A DNA stretch of 64,000 bases from positions 544,001-608,000 of the forward strand of contig CAWHAE010000016.1 of the NCBI GenBank assembly GCA_963827235.1, in the 5' to 3' direction. The position numbers and the translations under genes were made by a program. The notes below the pieces were generated by a model. It saw only the letters and a program-made list of their open reading frames with translations, was not told where the DNA came from and made no database searches. How positions within the stretch are numbered: position 1 is the stretch's first letter; the number at the start of each line of letters is the position of its first letter. Below, piece after piece: positions 1,808 through 9,712 of this stretch. The stretch comes from an uncultured bacterium (GTDB taxonomy: Bacteria; Chloroflexota; UBA5177; JANWHV01).

Positions 1808-2788
1808 GTGGAGCCTCTCGTGAAGACATTCTGTCCATTCTGCGGCATCGCCAACGTGTCGGAAGCCGCGGTTTGCCGTGCATGCGGAACCCCACTGCCC
1901 TTGGCGGCTGACGGCGAGGCGCCGGTTACACAGAGCAGCAGCTTCCGCGCGGACGGACAGACATTCGAGGTCGGCGTGCCATACCCGGCACCGCCGACGA
2001 ATGGTTATGTGCCGCAGTCTGCCTGGCCGAATGCAGCCTCACCACAGTTGCCGTCGCGACAGACGCGCGGGTCCGGCGGACGGCCGGCCTGGGATCCGTC
2101 GAGCCGTCAAGCGCCACCCGTGTACGGCGGCTCTGTGACCCCGACCGGACCGTACAACGGGGCGTATCCGGCCCAGTACGTGCCTGTCCAGCAACCCTCC
2201 GTGAATATGTATCTCCCGGGAGACCCACGAGCCAGTGCCCAGTTTTCGGCTGGTGGTGGGGTGCTGCCCTCCGATCCGCGCTTTCCCGCGACGCCGCTTG
2301 CCGGGCCATATGCAGTCGCTCCCTACGGCGCCGGCGCTCCGCCGATGCAGTTTGCCACGGTGCCTGCCTATCTCCAGACCGGACAACCCGAGCTCGCCGA
2401 CTTCGGCATGAGGCTCGGGGCATTTCTGCTCGATGCGACGGCCCTGTCGGTACCCTGGTTCATCTTGATGGGATTGGCGGCGGCAACCGCCTCTACCACG
2501 CTGGCTGGGTTGACGCTCATGCTCATGTTCCTGGGACCGGCGCTGTACTTTGTGACTGCATGGGCGAACGGGGGCCAGACCCTCGGCTACCGCGCGCTCG
2601 GGCTCCGGCTTGTGCGCACGGATGGCTCTCGCCCGGGTGTCGGTTCAGCGATCGCGCGTTGCTTGGGCATATTCATCTGCCTGAGCATGCTGATACCGGG
2701 CGTCCTCGGTTTCATGTGGATGCTCTGGGACGATCGAAAGCAGACCCTGCACGACAAGATGAGCGACACGCTGGTCGTGAAGTCTTGA
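1808..2788 (+). CDS. RDD family membrane protein with N-terminal zinc ribbon and Pro-rich linker
   Basis: CPFCG..CRACG; LADFGMRLGAFLLD, GQTLG and KQTLHDKMSDTLVV RDD motifs. Confidence 0.85.
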   Translation: MEPLVKTFCPFCGIANVSEAAVCRACGTPLPLAADGEAPVTQSSSFRADGQTFEVGVPYPAPPTNGYVPQSAWPNAASPQLPSRQTRGSGGRPAWDPSSRQAPPVYGGSVTPTGPYNGAYPAQYVPVQQPSVNMYLPGDPRASAQFSAGGGVLPSDPRFPATPLAGPYAVAPYGAGAPPMQFATVPAYLQTGQPELADFGMRLGAFLLDATALSVPWFILMGLAAATASTTLAGLTLMLMFLGPALYFVTAWANGGQTLGYRALGLRLVRTDGSRPGVGSAIARCLGIFICLSMLIPGVLGFMWMLWDDRKQTLHDKMSDTLVVKS

Positions 2789-2868
2789 GTGCAGCATAGT
2801 GCAGCGTGCGCCCGTGTCGGGTGGTTCCCCGCCATAGTGTTGTGCCTCCGAAAGCCAACCGCGGTCAT

Positions 2869-2898
2869 TTGACTGTCGACTTCGCCAAACCCTATGAT
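2869..2898 (+). promoter_or_regulatory. putative sigma70 promoter TTGACT-N18-TATGAT
   Basis: 5/6 + 5/6 consensus match upstream of the ANTAR regulator. Confidence 0.6.
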
Positions 2899-2921
2899 TC
2901 TGTTTAGGGAGGGAGGTGAGT

Positions 2922-3512
2922 ATGCCCAACTCGGCAACGCGCATCGTGATCGCGGATGACGAACCGCTCATTCGGATCGACTTGCGCGAGAACCTGGAAA
3001 GCCTTGGTTACGAGGTCGTGGGCGAGGCAGCCGACGGCAAACACGCCGTGGAAATGGCGCGGAAGCTGCGCCCAGACATCGTGATCATGGATATCAAAAT
3101 GCCGGAGATGACCGGTATCGAGGCATTACGCGTCCTCACGGAGGAGAACATCGCGCCCGTGCTGCTGTTGACGGCGTACGGCGAGGGCGATCTCGTCCAG
3201 CAAGCAAGTGACGCAGGCGCCGTTGCGTACCTGGTCAAACCCTACCGGCAGTCCGATCTGCAGCCGCATATCGAGGTCGCGCTGGCCCGATTTAGCGAGC
3301 TGAGAACGCTTAGAACCGAGTTGGATGACGTTCGGGAGGCGCTGAACGTGAGGAAGCTTGTCGAACGCGCCAAGGGCCTCCTCATGGAGACGCAGGGGCT
3401 AAAGGAAGCCGAAGCGTTTCGCCGTATTCAGAAGCTCAGCATGGACACGCGTAAGTCCATGAAGGAAGTGGCCGAGGCAATCTTGCTCGCCCACCAGGCC
3501 ACGAAGTCCTGA
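2922..3512 (+). CDS. response regulator, REC + ANTAR RNA-binding domain (PdtaR/NasT/EutV-like)
   Basis: IADDE..MDIKMP..LTA..KP receiver; RKLVERAKGLLM..EAEAFRRIQKLSM..MKEVAEAI ANTAR domain; alternative GTG start at 2916. Confidence 0.93.
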   Translation: MPNSATRIVIADDEPLIRIDLRENLESLGYEVVGEAADGKHAVEMARKLRPDIVIMDIKMPEMTGIEALRVLTEENIAPVLLLTAYGEGDLVQQASDAGAVAYLVKPYRQSDLQPHIEVALARFSELRTLRTELDDVREALNVRKLVERAKGLLMETQGLKEAEAFRRIQKLSMDTRKSMKEVAEAILLAHQATKS

Positions 3513-3556
3513 CATCTGCCCGGGCGGTCGGGCCTGCTGTAGACACGACTCCCTCG

Positions 3557-3712
3557 GGTTACCGCCAGCCGCATCCACACCGGGCACGCTGCCAAGGAAG
3601 GCGCGATGCCCGAATGCGAGTAACCGCGCATCGTAGCGCATCCTCCGCCGACGCAGGCACAGCCACGACGAGCAGCGCTGCCCTGTTTATTGCGCAGTTA
3701 CTTGGTGGAGGA
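3557..3712 (+). promoter_or_regulatory. structured glnA leader: dual AnnGnn-hexaloop hairpins and anti-SD helix (candidate ANTAR target)
   Basis: GCC-AAGGAA-GGC (3591-3602) atop a long stem, GCGC-ATCGTA-GCGC (3626-3639), anti-SD 3641-3651 complementary to 3702-3712. Confidence 0.55.
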
Positions 3713-3718
3713 GACTGA

Positions 3719-5149
3719 ATGACACCCAGCGAGGTGCTCAAATACGCCGAGGAGAACGGAGTACGGTTCGTCGATCTGAAGTTCACCGATCTTCCTGGTA
3801 CCTGGCAACACTTCACAACCCCGATTAGCGAGCTCGAGGAAGAGACCTTTACCGAGGGCCTCGGCTTCGACGGGTCCAGCATCCGCGGATTCCAGGAGAT
3901 CAACGAGAGCGATATGCTCGTGATTCCCGATCCGTTGAGTGCCCACCTCGATCCCTTCACCGCCGTCCCTACCCTGAGCCTGATCTGCGATATCGCCGAT
4001 CCGCTGACCAAGCAGCCCTATTCGCGTGACCCACGTTACATCGCGAAGAAGGCTGAGGCCGTGGTGAAGAAGCTGGGTTTCGCCGACGCGGCGTTCTTCG
4101 GCCCCGAAGCTGAGTTCTTCATCTTCGACGACGTCCGCTACTCGTCGGCCCCCGACTACACGTTCTTCGCGGTCGACGCGGAGGAGTCGCACTGGAACAC
4201 CTCGCGCGACGAAGGTCCCAACCTCTCCAACAAGATTCGCCCCAAGGAAGGCTACTTCCCCGTAGCGCCTCAGGATAAGCTCGGAGACGTGCGAGGCGAG
4301 ATGGTTCTCACCATGATCGACTCCTTCGGCATCGCCGTGGAAACCCACCACCACGAGGTGGCGGCGCCGGGCCAGGCCGAAATCGACATGCGCTTCGACA
4401 CGCTCGTCAAGATGGCCGACAACCTGATGACCTACAAATACGTGGTGAAGAACGTCGCCAAGCGACATGGCAAAGTTGCCACCTTCATGCCGAAGCCGCT
4501 CTACGGAGACAACGGTTCGGGCATGCACGTGCACCAGAGCCTCTGGAAGGAAGGCAAGCCGCTTTTTGCCGACCCTGCCGGTTACGCGGGACTGAGCAAG
4601 CTTGCCCTGCAGTATATCGGCGGTCTGCTCATGCACGCGCCGGCTATTCTCGCCTTCGCAGCTCCGACCACCAATTCGTACCGGCGGCTCGTGCCGGGCT
4701 TCGAAGCACCCGTGAATCTCGTGTACTCAGCGCGAAATCGCAGCGCCGCCGTACGCATTCCCATGTACTCGGCCAACCCCAAGGCGAAGCGCATCGAGTT
4801 CCGACCTCCGGACCCGGCAGCGAACCCGTACCTGACCTTCGCGGCCCTGCTGTGTGCCGGCCTCGACGGAATACGTAAGGGTATCGATCCGACAAAGGAG
4901 GGCTTCGGCCCGCTGGATCGCAACATCTACGAGCTCTCGGCCGAGGAATACGAGTCTATCCGCTCGGTGCCCGGCAGTCTCGACGAGGCGCTGGCAGCGC
5001 TGCAGGAGGATAACGAGTTCCTGGTTGCCGACGGCGTCTTCACGGAGGACGTGATCGACACCTGGATCAATTACAAGCGCACCACCGAGGCGGATGAGGT
5101 CAGGCTGCGGCCCACTCCCCACGAGTACTACTTGTATTTCGACGTCTGA
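3719..5149 (+). CDS. glnA: glutamine synthetase type I
   Basis: [45 protein letters not shown] motifs; adenylylation-loop-like RNIYEL. Confidence 0.98.
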
Positions 5150-5215
5150 GCCGCGGACCTTGCCGCCGGTCGGCACCACGGGTTGCCCGGTGGCTCGCGA
5201 CATGACGTAGAAGAA

Positions 5216-5252
5216 TATGCCCGCCGCCCAATGGGCGGCGGGCATACGTTTC
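5216..5252. terminator. bidirectional intrinsic terminator after glnA
   Basis: Perfect inverted repeat TATGCCCGCCGCCCA-A-TGGGCGGCGGGCATA between convergent genes. Confidence 0.8.
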
Positions 5253-5309
5253 TGCACCGGCTTCGGCGGGAACCAGCACGACCCTACCCGACCGGGCGCC
5301 GGGCTGCCG

Positions 5310-5900
5310 TCAATGGTCTGTCGCGCGAGCGTCCAGCTCCTCCTGCGAGGGTGCCGCCTCAGGCTCCGCTGGCTTGCCGGCAGACGCGGAAGCGTTCTGG
5401 TCCGGATGGGCAGGGCCGCTGCCAGACTCGTCGTGCTTCACTTCGATCCAGTTCTCCTCGCCAAAGTCTTCGTCGTCGTCGCCACCCCGTTGCGTGAAGT
5501 AGGCGATCACGGCGCCGACGATCAGCCCGAACACAAGGAAGCGGAAGAATCCACCACCCGACCGTTTCGCGGCGGGCTTCTCGCCGAGGGATTCGGCAAC
5601 CGTTTCGGCGGCCTCGGCCACGGCGGACTTCGCGGCAGCGATCGGCTCCCCAGCGCTCGCCGCGACCGACTTCGCCGCGGCCGCTATCTGATCTGCGGCG
5701 GCCTGCGCAACGACCACGGGCTCAGCGTGCTTGGCCCCCACGATAGCCTGCTCGGCCAGGGTCTTCGCGGTCTCGATCAACTGCAGCAAGGACTGTTGCA
5801 CCAATTGCTGCACCGCATCCTTCGTCGCATCGGAGATCTGCTGCGCGGCATCCTTTACCGTGTCCTTCACAGTCTCGCGAATCTCCTCTAGATCTGGCAC
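5310..5900 (-). CDS. hypothetical Ala-rich protein with one TM helix
   Basis: Amphipathic Ala-rich N-terminus, FFRFLVFGLIVGAVIAYF segment, GAGG RBS before GTG at 5900. Confidence 0.75.
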   Translation of the reverse strand: MPDLEEIRETVKDTVKDAAQQISDATKDAVQQLVQQSLLQLIETAKTLAEQAIVGAKHAEPVVVAQAAADQIAAAAKSVAASAGEPIAAAKSAVAEAAETVAESLGEKPAAKRSGGGFFRFLVFGLIVGAVIAYFTQRGGDDDEDFGEENWIEVKHDESGSGPAHPDQNASASAGKPAEPEAAPSQEELDARATDH

Positions 5901-6131
5901 TCGTTCATTCCTCTCTGCTACGGCAGCACCAGGCACGATACATGGTGACTGTAACGCATAATCGGGTTCTCAGGAACTTTCCTCTATTCTACTATGACAG
6001 AGGCGGCGGCTAGGGCACGCCCGCGATCGCGAATGTAGCAACCGCGACTTGCAGTGAAGCGGTAACCGCGCGATTATGAGCGTGGCAGGTGGTCGTTGAA
6101 AGACTGCCGGATCATCCGGCAGAGGGGTTAC

Positions 6132-6753: not shown

Positions 6754-8256
6754 GTGCTTGGCTCGAGTTCAGCTAGTCAGCAACCTTCCCCGCCTGCCAG
6801 GTCAGACATTCCTTCAGTACCGGTGACCGCCATCGAGCACTCGACACCTGCCTCGGACAGTCCGCGCGAGGCGTGCGGCGTGTTCGGCATCATCGCTCCC
6901 GGCGCCGACGTGGCTCGCGCTGCATACTATGGCCTCTATACGCTGCAGCACCGGGGCCAGGAGAGTGCCGGGATCGCCGTGGCGGATGGCAGGTCGATTC
7001 GACTTCGGCGCGAGATGGGTTTGGTATCCCAGGTATTCAACGACGCTGAGCTCAATGACCTGCGAGGCGATCTTGCTGTTGGCCACTGCCGCTACTCGAC
7101 GACGGGAGCAAGCCAGCTGGCCAATGCGCAGCCGATCGTGGTAATTGACGCCCCGGGGTCGCCGCAGGCCGGAGAGCCGCTGGCAATCGCGCACAATGGC
7201 AACCTGGTCAACGTCGACACTATACAGGCCCAGCTCGCTGAGTCCGGCGTGCGGTTCCAATCTACGAGCGACAGCGAAGTGATCATCCAGCTCGTTAGAA
7301 TGACGAGCGGCCGTACGTGGCTCGAGCGCATTGCGCGCGCACTGTCCACGCTCTCCGGCGCATTCAGCCTGGTGTTCGCTTCGCGTACCGACCTCTATGC
7401 CGCGCGGGACCGATGGGGCATTCGCCCGCTCTGCCTCGGCAAGCTGGAAGGAGGCTGGGCTGTGGCATCGGAGTCCTGCGCGCTGGACGCCGTGGGCGCT
7501 GAGCTCGTGCGCGAGCTCCTGCCCGGCGAGGTGCTGAGAATAGGGCGAGACGGGCCGGAGTCGGTTCAGTATGCCGAATCGTCGCCCCACCTGTGCTCAT
7601 TCGAATTCATCTACTTCGCTCGTCCCGACAGCGTGATCGAGGGACGCAGCGTGCATAGCGCCCGCGTCGCTCTGGGACGGCAGCTGGCCATCGAGCATCC
7701 CGTGGATGGTGATATGGTCATGCCCGTCCCGGAGTCGGGAATCCCGATGGCGGTCGGCTACGCCAGGCAGTCGCGTATCCCCTACGGCGATGGGCTGGTG
7801 AAGAACCGCTACATCGGCCGCACCTTCATCTCTCCCACGCAGCTCGAGCGCAACCGCGGCATTCACCTCAAGTTCAACCCGTTGAGCGGCGAGCTCCGCG
7901 ACAAGCGGCTGATCGTGATCGAGGACTCGCTGATACGCGGCACCACCAGCCGCCCGTTGGTGGCCATGCTGCGCCGGGCGGGAGCCCGCGAGGTTCACCT
8001 ACGCATCGCGTCGCCGCCTTACCGTTATCCGTGTCACCTGGGCATGGACACGAGTCGCCGCTCGGAGCTGATCGCCGCCAACCACACGCACCAAGAGATT
8101 CTCGAGTACACGGGCGCCGACTCGCTGGAGTACCTGAGCATCGACGGGCTGATCGCGGCCGTGGGCCGTCACGAGGCGCATTCGTGCCGCGCGTGCATGG
8201 ACGGGCGGTATCCTATGCCCGTGCAACCTGAGCTCGAGGCCGCGGCGACATCGTAG
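6754..8256 (+). CDS. purF: amidophosphoribosyltransferase
   Basis: Propeptide then CGVFG, LQHRGQESAGI, HNGNL, CSFEFIYFARPDS, DSLIRGTT, Fe-S Cys (PCHLGMD, CRAC). Confidence 0.97.
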   Translation: MLGSSSASQQPSPPARSDIPSVPVTAIEHSTPASDSPREACGVFGIIAPGADVARAAYYGLYTLQHRGQESAGIAVADGRSIRLRREMGLVSQVFNDAELNDLRGDLAVGHCRYSTTGASQLANAQPIVVIDAPGSPQAGEPLAIAHNGNLVNVDTIQAQLAESGVRFQSTSDSEVIIQLVRMTSGRTWLERIARALSTLSGAFSLVFASRTDLYAARDRWGIRPLCLGKLEGGWAVASESCALDAVGAELVRELLPGEVLRIGRDGPESVQYAESSPHLCSFEFIYFARPDSVIEGRSVHSARVALGRQLAIEHPVDGDMVMPVPESGIPMAVGYARQSRIPYGDGLVKNRYIGRTFISPTQLERNRGIHLKFNPLSGELRDKRLIVIEDSLIRGTTSRPLVAMLRRAGAREVHLRIASPPYRYPCHLGMDTSRRSELIAANHTHQEILEYTGADSLEYLSIDGLIAAVGRHEAHSCRACMDGRYPMPVQPELEAAATS

Positions 8257-8647: not shown

Positions 8648-9712
8648 ATGCCCGACAACGTGGTGCACCCAAGCGGGGACCGGGAAGCACCCCGCTCGGC
8701 CGCCGTGCGATCCTATGCCGAGGCCGGCGTGGATATCGACGCGGGCGAGCGGGCCGTAGCCCTGATGCGCCCGTCGATCGTGGCGGCGCAGGGCCTCGTC
8801 AACGCCTTCGGCGCCTTCGGTGCCGCGGTGTCGTCGCCGGGAAGCTCGATGCTGCTCGTCTCCAGTGCGGATGGCGTAGGCACCAAGCTCTGTCTGGCGC
8901 GCGAGGACCCGGAGTTTGCCGGCCTCGGACGCGACCTGGTGCATCATTGTATCAACGACATCTTGACGTGCGGAGCCGCTCCCCTGTTCTTTCTGGACTA
9001 CCTGGCCTTCGGCAAACTGCATCCCGAGCGTGCCGCCGCCATTGTGAGCGGCATGGCACAGGCGTGTACCGCGCACGGCGCGGCGCTGGTAGGCGGGGAG
9101 ACGGCAGAGCTGCCGGACATCTACCGCGAGGATGCCTTCGACATCGCAGGCTTCATCGTGGGCTCGGTGGCCAGGGATATGCTGATCGACGGCTCGCGCA
9201 TTCGTGCCGGCCACACGCTCCTCGGCTTGCGCTCTACCGGCCTTCACACCAACGGCTACAGCCTTGCCAGGACTCTCTTGCAGGACAGGCTGGATGAGCA
9301 GATCTCGCCGCCTGCCGGAGGTGGGCAGTGTTCGACCATTCGCGAGGCGCTTCTGGCGGAACATCCGTGCTACCTGGAGAATCTCACTCCGTTGCTCGAC
9401 GGCGGCTTCGTGCTGGGTCTCGCGCACATTACCGGTGGCGGGCTTCCCGGCAACGTGCCGCGTATGCTGCCCCGCGGCCTCGTCGCGCACTTCGATCCTC
9501 AGTCATGGACAGCTCCACCGATCTTCGCCGTCCTGAGGGAGTACGACCTCGCGGCCGGCGAGCTGTACAGGACGTTCAACATGGGACTCGGCATGGTCAT
9601 CGCCTGCGACAGCGATCATGTGAACGACGTGCTTGCGATGCTGCCCACGGCGTCGATAGTGGGCAGCGTGCGGGAAGACAGCGGACTTGGCCGCGTGGTA
9701 GGGCTGTACTGA
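8648..9712 (+). CDS. purM: phosphoribosylformylglycinamidine cyclo-ligase
   Basis: SYAEAGVDIDAG, DGVGTK, GGETAE, GLHTNGYSL, HITGGG, TFNMG. Confidence 0.97.
   Translation: MPDNVVHPSGDREAPRSAAVRSYAEAGVDIDAGERAVALMRPSIVAAQGLVNAFGAFGAAVSSPGSSMLLVSSADGVGTKLCLAREDPEFAGLGRDLVHHCINDILTCGAAPLFFLDYLAFGKLHPERAAAIVSGMAQACTAHGAALVGGETAELPDIYREDAFDIAGFIVGSVARDMLIDGSRIRAGHTLLGLRSTGLHTNGYSLARTLLQDRLDEQISPPAGGGQCSTIREALLAEHPCYLENLTPLLDGGFVLGLAHITGGGLPGNVPRMLPRGLVAHFDPQSWTAPPIFAVLREYDLAAGELYRTFNMGLGMVIACDSDHVNDVLAMLPTASIVGSVREDSGLGRVVGLY

Follow-up and report, generated by a model that had tools for sequence, protein, structure and literature searches.

A conserved folded leader between a PdtaR-like ANTAR regulator gene and glnA in a Chloroflexota genus: a candidate regulator target for switching on translation

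A gene for an ANTAR response regulator lies directly upstream of glnA in a Chloroflexota genome, and a spacer of 206 nt separates the two genes. Is this spacer an RNA target of the regulator encoded beside it, and, if so, would binding turn glnA translation on or off? The locus belongs to a stretch of 64,000 nucleotides (the window; coordinates without a prefix are window positions, on the forward strand unless noted), which is part of contig C16 of an 8.0 Mb metagenome-assembled genome (G000; completeness 95.9%, contamination 9%, 65% G+C) from a soil/digester genus. An earlier sequence-only reading had proposed that the phosphorylated regulator represses glnA by locking one of two alternative folds of the spacer. 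Judging from the sequences of relatives, the RNA of this spacer has a conserved fold in which the glnA ribosome-binding site is hidden. The further statement, that this leader is an ANTAR target switching glnA translation on, is a tentative one to which we give somewhat less than even weight.

Pfam searches confirmed the domains of both genes. The regulator (2922-3512) matched Response_reg (E = 1.2e-28) and ANTAR (E = 5.8e-22), and no other ANTAR match was found in the 8 Mb genome. The gene glnA (3719-5149) encodes a type I glutamine synthetase (GS) with matches to Gln-synt_C (E = 8e-131) and Gln-synt_N (E = 1.1e-31), and its ATG is 7 nt downstream of GGAGGAG. With an N-terminal receiver, a C-terminal ANTAR domain, a length of about 200 aa, and a close solved relative in 1s8n ("putative antiterminator," E = 1.2e-55 over residues 6-188), the regulator has the features of the PdtaR type. 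We take 1s8n to be Rv1626/PdtaR of M. tuberculosis and the next-best solved relative, 6wsh, to be EutV. By eye, the regulator aligns with Rv1626 at the DDE of the acidic pocket, at the D in MDIKMP, and at the K in LVKP. A sigma-70-like promoter, TTGACT-18-TATGAT (2869-2898, 10 of 12 matches), was the sole promoter-like site within 2700-5400. Its blocks TTTGAC and CCTATG(A/C)T were kept in all seven sequences of the genus while the flanks diverged. As the sequence-only reading had held, no promoter-like site was found inside the spacer, and none was conserved there across the genus sequences. The regulator gene and glnA are likely co-transcribed as one operon from the promoter at 2869-2898. A sigma-54 promoter considered at GGCAC...GC within 3656-3675 was rejected by eye for its wrong spacing.

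Taken as a single sequence, the leader does not stand out. The minimum free energy (MFE) of 3513-3730 was -82.6 kcal/mol compared to -81.4 +/- 4.6 for dinucleotide shuffles (z = -0.25; 72 of 200 shuffles folded equally well). Hexaloops whose first base is A and whose fourth is G (A1/G4), the loop type at issue here, were found in 19,904 of the 364,050 genomic hexaloop hairpins of at least 4 bp, or about 1 per 800 nt per strand. Since fold and loops are both at chance level on the single sequence, the case rests on relatives. Our comparison set consisted of seven distinct leaders from one Chloroflexota genus, five from genomes (G000-G004) and two from metagenome contigs (L112 and L113), with lengths of 152-250 nt (G003, at 152 nt, being the shortest named) and a mean column identity of 61%. 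The invariant blocks in these leaders were the stem of a hairpin we call P2, the sequence CCUCCGCC, the pairs GCC...GGC and GAGC...GC.C, and GUGGAGGA, which contains the Shine-Dalgarno (SD) sequence.

The element that connects these blocks to translation is an anti-SD at 3641-3651, which pairs at 11 of 11 positions (two of them G-U) with 3702-3712 and so covers the SD GGAGG (3707-3711). Its core, CCUCCGCC (3642-3649), is invariant in all seven leaders, as is the SD. At most 6 of 300 shuffles gave a better duplex in five of the seven leaders, while 56 of 300 did so in G002 and 105 of 300 in L112. When the stretch from anti-SD to SD was folded alone, a long irregular hairpin (-27 to -51 kcal/mol) was obtained in all seven leaders, with a small hairpin (P3) at its tip and the SD paired at its base; the 3' strand of this sequestor, SD included, covers 3691-3712 in the window, and the SD is paired in each leader. 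In whole-leader ensembles computed without protein, the SD was unpaired at most 0.1% of the time in five of the seven leaders, 27% in G000, and 33% in G002. Because the anti-SD pairs with the SD region, glnA translation would be off or low by default.

Upstream of the SD, and ending 24 nt before it, are four hexaloop hairpins, all closed by a C-G pair; their link to the SD is the anti-SD, which lies in the linker between the second and third. P1 (3557-3625) is a long interrupted hairpin whose segments pair at 6/6, 5/5, and 6/6 positions and whose apical part (3587-3605) has 3+3 bp at its top (a T and an A are each bulged out) under the loop AAGGAA (3594-3599). An A1/G4 hexaloop was found at this place in six of the seven leaders (all except G001), while the long lower stem was unconserved. 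P2 (3626-3639, GCGC-ATCGTA-GCGC) has a stem that is invariant in all seven and a loop with G4 in all seven, A1 in four, and G1 in G003, G004, and L113. The pairs and loops listed by the sequence-only reading for P1, P2, the anti-SD, and an alternative fold B are all present in the sequence. Two more ANTAR-type hairpins had gone unmentioned there. P2b (3647-3658, GCC-GACGCA-GGC) has three invariant pairs and a fourth in five of the seven leaders; its loop has G4 in all seven and A1 in six, this genome having G1. P3 (GAGC-AGCGCU-GCCC, 3670-3683, with a lower stem of 3664-3667/3684-3687, hence 3664-3687 in all) is the apex of the SD-sequestering hairpin. Its pairs are invariant save for one A-U that is A.C in G000 and G001 (three of four pairs here, four of four in the other five leaders). 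In the lower stem, one pair has changed on both sides and three on one side. The P3 loop has A1 and G4 in all seven leaders, and each of its remaining four positions varies.

The four hairpins of the seven leaders add up to 27 hexaloops; every one of them has G4, and 23 have A1, all four exceptions being G. Invariance was concentrated at exactly these positions: six of eight hairpin-positions were invariant for loop positions 1 and 4, and two of 16 for the other loop positions (hypergeometric p = 0.0047). Among hexaloop hairpins of at least 4 bp, the A1/G4 share was 22 of 60 in the genus leaders and 5.5% genome-wide. In stems, loops, and spacing, the arrangement also fits the published definition of ANTAR-target RNAs (Ramesh 2012, Mehta 2021). 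It holds at least two tandem stem-loops of at least 3 bp each (P1, P2, and P2b have 3-6 contiguous pairs here); A1/G4 loops prevail overall, with P1, P2, and P3 conforming in this genome and P2b carrying G1; and the linkers fall in the range of 2-25 nt given for ANTAR targets (PMC8164766). These linkers are 7-9 nt from P2 to P2b, 11-12 nt from P2b to P3, and 6-8 nt from P1 to P2 in G003, G004, and L113 (20 nt here, counting the top of P1 alone), and those of eut leaders are 5-12 nt (PMC3369931). A single hexaloop has been described as the minimal ANTAR site (PMC8934654).

Two further observations were made on hexaloops in these leaders. At 3706-3717 of the window, the SD itself lies in the A1/G4 hexaloop of a 3-bp hairpin, UGG-AGGAGA-CUG, which is present in G000, G001, G002, and L112 and missing from G003, G004, and L113. 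The leader of G001 (L003:2197-2222) carries a direct duplication of CGCAGAGU, which gives rise to a pair of A1/G4 hexaloop hairpins, CGC-AGAGUC-GCG and CGCGC-AGAGUA-GCGCG, that overlap and exclude each other, and it is the same leader that has no hexaloop at the P1 place.

P2b is the hairpin through which the array could act on translation. P2 and P2b are joined by a linker of 7-9 nt, and this linker is the anti-SD core, (U/C)CCUCC. What is left of the anti-SD (GCC, its 3' part), together with the bases by which the sequestor continues beyond it, doubles as the 5' strand and loop of P2b. Formation of P2b therefore excludes the full sequestor, and vice versa. In nascent transcripts, P2b was predicted to form with P of 0.82-1.00 in five of the seven leaders.

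These results suggest the following model. The conserved promoter at 2869-2898 would drive a regulator-glnA transcript in which the 206-nt spacer serves as cis-regulatory RNA. By default, the spacer would adopt the long hairpin, with the anti-SD (3641-3651) on the SD region (3702-3712) and P3 as its apex. P1, P2, P2b, and P3, as C-G-closed A1/G4 hexaloops, would be putative ANTAR sites. We infer that the PdtaR-like regulator, phosphorylated in response to a nitrogen signal, would capture P2 and P2b during transcription, prevent the full sequestor from forming, and so turn glnA translation on, which would be ANTAR antitermination transposed to translation. The parts of this model differ in strength. 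That the leader is a cis target of the adjacent regulator is a reasonable expectation, a little better than even. Given that it is a target, control of translation through the anti-SD is quite probable. Given both, activation is the favored sign by analogy with related loci, at about the same confidence as the target itself or slightly more.

Several results weigh against the model. The relatives available for the leader are only seven and come from a single lineage, and their kinship means that the conservation statistics overstate independence. The small stems of P2, P2b, and P3 do not vary among the seven leaders and so show no covariation; the lower stem of P3 alone shows any. Every leader has at least one imperfect hairpin: P2b has G1 here, P2 has G1 in three leaders, P3 has the A.C in G000 and G001, and G001 is without the P1 hexaloop. 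The predicted P of P2b was only 0.16 in the nascent transcript of G000 and 0.00 in that of L112. When P2 and P2b were forced in silico, UCCUCC stayed paired with GGAGGA and the unpaired fraction of the SD was 0.04-0.37, and in G000 the accessibility of the SD dropped from 0.27 to 0.10. As forcing P2 and P2b leaves the SD mostly paired, relief would need help beyond a simple thermodynamic switch; bound protein might occlude the linker, or the ribosome might out-compete the 6-bp helix, which closes a large loop. We also looked for a second target in G000. The 330 nt before each of the four GS paralogues and three amt genes held no A1/G4 hairpins in tandem array, and a covariance model spanning the core from P2 to P3 (R1) matched only this glnA leader in that genome. 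Lastly, regulator orthologues do not adjoin a GS gene at 164 of 177 loci.

Full-length orthologues of the regulator occur in Chloroflexota, Armatimonadota, and Negativicutes. The 13 loci with a GS gene directly downstream represent 10 distinct places, of which seven belong to this genus and three (L007, L009, and L012) to other Chloroflexota. Two of these three hold complete operons. At L012:15-3429 (family f15), pdtaS, pdtaR, and the GS gene form a tight operon in which the kinase has GAF_PdtaS, PAS, HisKA_2, and HATPase domains and the spacer between regulator and GS gene is only about 24 nt. At L007:28-3565 (family f5), a complete pdtaS-pdtaR-GS operon encodes a GAF_PdtaS-HisKA_2-HATPase kinase, and between regulator and GS gene (at L007:2131-2175) the locus carries CAGGCAAAGGCGCC, which matches the RNA site of Geobacter GnfR, CAGGCAANGGCGCC, at 14 of 14 positions. 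The same site, CAGGCAANGGCGCC, is matched at 12 of 14 positions between regulator and GS gene at L009:1068-1107. At L007 and L009, two loci of one family, this GnfR-type site folds into GGC-AAAGGC-GCC, an A1/G4 hexaloop hairpin, and shares sequence with the 5' half of a terminator of 12 bp that a U-run follows. In Geobacter, phosphorylated GnfR binds its RNA site and antiterminates nitrogen-fixation genes (PMC2995071). The regulator of the L007/L009 lineage is thus most simply an activator of GS expression, and by analogy we favor activation here too. A search for the GnfR 12-mer in G000 returned 31 matches, about the number estimated from base composition, and these were set aside as none had a convincing context.

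The sequence-only reading had seen no cognate kinase in the window, and our search agrees: the candidate lies outside it. G000 encodes a single HisKA_2 kinase (GAF-GAF-HisKA_2-HATPase) at C16:475758-477641 (= L224:232-2115), which places it some 67 kb upstream on that contig, and this kinase is a candidate partner of the regulator. No GAF_PdtaS match was found in G000, and control genomes gave none either; the two GAF domains are generic. Among the solved relatives of the GAF region is that of phosphoenolpyruvate-protein phosphotransferase, its GAF domain (3ci6, 3trc). In PTS-Ntr, the GAF domain of that enzyme senses glutamine and 2-oxoglutarate. It is a possibility, if a doubtful one, that PdtaS/PdtaR-type systems regulate GS by nitrogen in Chloroflexota through two read-outs: a GnfR-type antiterminator, seen at two loci of one family, and, in the present genus, a translational ON "anti-sequestor" in which a hairpin held by the ANTAR protein would compete with the anti-SD helix.

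The first alternative to be weighed is that the intercistronic RNA is conserved and structured but not operated by the ANTAR protein: a constitutive SD sequestor that keeps glnA translation below that of the regulator, a processing or stability element, or an undescribed metabolite- or temperature-sensing RNA, with A1/G4 loops arising from shared ancestry and chance. The rarity of regulator-GS adjacency is in keeping with such an RNA, as are the lack of covariation in the small stems and the sampling of one lineage. So is a survey downstream of 165 distinct regulator loci, where tandem A1/G4 hairpins were not enriched outside the genus; they occurred at 19 loci (seven of them from this genus), and the C/C and G/G loop classes at 21. 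What this alternative does not readily account for is that A1/G4 was kept amid changing loop neighbors in four separate hairpins, all with the C-G closing pair, and that two more families have a GS gene linked to pdtaS-pdtaR. A metabolite riboswitch, which the sequence-only reading had offered as its own alternative, found no support: Rfam gave no match within the spacer at E <= 10, glutamine riboswitch families included, and conserved unpaired junctions resembling a ligand pocket are not evident. Over 2500-4200 as a whole, the same search returned five matches at E 1.4-8.2, none credible and none at the gathering score. We regard a protein-independent RNA as rather unlikely, if the most serious competitor of the ANTAR-target reading.

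A second alternative is the one originally proposed, in which the phosphorylated regulator binds P1 and P2, locks the anti-SD on the SD, and represses, and in which fold B opens P2 and releases the SD when protein is missing. P1 and P2 do carry A1/G4 hexaloops in this genome, and in G003, G004, and L113 they make a textbook pair with 6-bp and 4-bp stems and a 6-8-nt linker (in these three leaders, however, P2 has G1, and in G001 the P1 hexaloop is missing). Activated PdtaR-type proteins also repress translation in mycobacteria and other actinobacteria (PMC8164766). Fold B itself, in which 3617-3630 pairs with 3691-3704 at 13 of 14 positions, is strong here (-19.8 kcal/mol, equaled by 0 of 300 shuffles) and is part of the MFE structure of G000, at -82.6 kcal/mol compared to -78.9 for the best structure containing the originally described fold A, a gap of 3.7 kcal/mol. 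Its equivalents in the other six leaders, however, did not rise above shuffles (26-141 of 300), and this holds even for G001 (88 of 300), the closest relative, whose regulator is 97% identical. Being strong in G000 and at shuffle level in the six others, fold B is lineage-specific rather than a conserved switch. Nor does it fully free the SD as had been claimed: in the fold-B MFE, three of the five SD bases remain paired, with UCC of 3573-3579. The conservation that the sequence-only reading had set as its own test was thus found for the anti-SD/SD pairing and P2, in six of seven leaders for the P1 hexaloop, and not for fold B, and a two-state switch built on that helix is not supported. Nor is repression by locking, since the SD is already more than 99.9% paired without protein in five of the seven leaders and there would be little left for a locking repressor to close. 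The GnfR-type arrangement of the related loci also speaks for activation. We consider this alternative quite unlikely. As a separate observation, GUAACC (3620-3625) can pair with GGUUAC (3557-3562, the base of P1) or with AGUUAC (3696-3701, in fold B), a three-way complementarity found only in this genome.

The weakest alternative, to which we attach very little weight, is transcription attenuation, in which P3 with its lower stem and the U-rich 3684-3691, or Rho acting on the untranslated spacer, halts transcription before glnA unless ANTAR binding permits passage: U-rich runs do follow P3 in G000 (UGUUUAUU) and G001 (GUGUUUUGAUUU), the related loci L007 and L009 have a clear terminator, and terminators are hard to predict in high-GC bacteria (PMC8164766), but our scan of 3513-3718 found no terminator-like site (and thus no hairpin overlapping the 5' half of a terminator, as in the antitermination class), the U-run, which lies opposite an A-rich stretch within the sequestor, is absent from G002 and L112, and P3 is itself an A1/G4 hairpin, so that binding would stabilize the supposed terminator, not compete with it.

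To return to the ANTAR-operated leader, its distribution appears to be narrow. R1 found exactly one copy, the glnA leader, in each of the five genomes of the genus (E <= 7.5e-11) and nothing credible in the other 36 relatives. The best match outside the genus (E = 0.004) was rejected as it lies inside a long open reading frame (ORF) and has no A1/G4 loops. Tallies over all 41 relatives (G000-G040) take in one unpublished genome, G018, and our specific claims are independent of it. A scan of all GTDB species with a pattern for the conserved core returned at least 118 matches, mostly chance, and among the 80 scored with R1 only two known records of the genus scored. Three DNA sequencing runs yielded identical low-depth contigs and no usable new leader variant. 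In a digester run, one contig showed a copy of 3642-3680 that has diverged. Among the genomes and contigs searched, the spacer RNA thus appears limited to its own genus only. The glnA orthologues of other Chloroflexota have no hexaloop array; most have a palindrome resembling TTGTGCA-N4-TGCACAA about 90-130 nt upstream (L204, L205, L210-L215, L217, L218, and L222), probably the operator of a DNA-binding nitrogen regulator. No such palindrome was found near the operon of this genus, and a search of the window allowing 2 mismatches gave three matches, at chance level and none near glnA. P-II (PF00543) had no match in 35 of the 41 Chloroflexota genomes, including all five of the genus, while the control was positive in 13 of 14 reference genomes. 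We dropped absence of P-II as a correlate of the ANTAR-GS link, as P-II is missing with and without the link alike.

Around the operon, an ORF of 208 aa on the reverse strand (5310-5936), convergent with glnA, has no Pfam match, and beyond it lie a purF-like gene (6754-8256) and then a purM-like gene (8648-9712). Elsewhere in G000, one of the three ammonium-transporter loci (C8:406600-408505) is in DNA markedly A+T-richer than the remaining genome, and contig C8 may derive from another organism, given the estimated contamination of 9%.

If the ANTAR-operated leader is real, setting an ANTAR hairpin against an anti-SD helix would show the same protein-RNA module wired to activate translation, and no earlier natural case would be known of an ANTAR ON-switch that works at the level of ribosome binding. 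It would also suggest how a genus with no detected P-II controls its main ammonium-assimilating enzyme. The physiological output of the mycobacterial PdtaS/PdtaR system is still debated, and a single-target system, with one regulator, one kinase candidate, and one leader, could clarify what systems of this type sense.

How does the leader compare with known systems? ANTAR leaders before GS and other nitrogen genes have been published for other phyla (PMC3369936), and possible translational ANTAR targets were mentioned in 2012 (PMC3369931). We found no description of such a leader in Chloroflexota in the literature searched, which did not extend to the supplementary target lists of Ramesh 2012 and Mehta 2021, where glnA leaders of other phyla may be listed. 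A close likeness is to the leaders of eutP (EutV, Enterococcus faecalis), nasF (NasR), and amiE (AmiR), which have tandem short A1/G4 hexaloop hairpins with linkers of a few to a dozen nucleotides, as does this one (PMC3369931, PMC8934654). In both, one hairpin overlaps the 5' half of the shut-off structure and the regulator gene adjoins its target, and the topology of P2b and sequestor is that of the classical ANTAR antiterminator and terminator (PMC3369931, PMC3369936). Unlike those leaders, this one has no intrinsic terminator, an SD-sequestering helix being the competitor instead; it has four hairpins rather than two, the anti-SD core is in a linker, and the target lies between regulator gene and glnA on the same transcript.

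Glutamine riboswitches (the glnA RNA motif and the Downstream-peptide motif) resemble the leader in being cis-acting RNAs that precede nitrogen genes and are able to act on the SD; they differ in that the spacer matches none of them in Rfam. GnfK/GnfR of Geobacter sulfurreducens is similar as a two-component system whose REC-ANTAR (receiver-ANTAR) regulator turns nitrogen genes on and whose kinase gene is not adjacent (PMC2995071), whereas the present genus lacks both 12-mer and terminator, its loops share only AANG (P1) or A..G with the GnfR site, and control would be translational. The mycobacterial PdtaS/PdtaR system (PMC8164766, bioRxiv 10.1101/660928) shares the lack of an adjacent kinase, a likely HisKA_2 partner, and, on the proposed model, control at translation initiation. 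In the actinobacterial targets, however, the hairpins themselves contain the ribosome-binding site or AUG and binding represses, whereas here a separate anti-SD sequesters and binding would more likely relieve; the target genes there are for lipids, sugars, and transport, and not glnA. Distinctive of this genus, then, are the anti-SD helix as competitor, the array of four hairpins, the placement of the element within the regulator's own transcript, and, for Chloroflexota, the link between PdtaS/PdtaR-type systems and GS.

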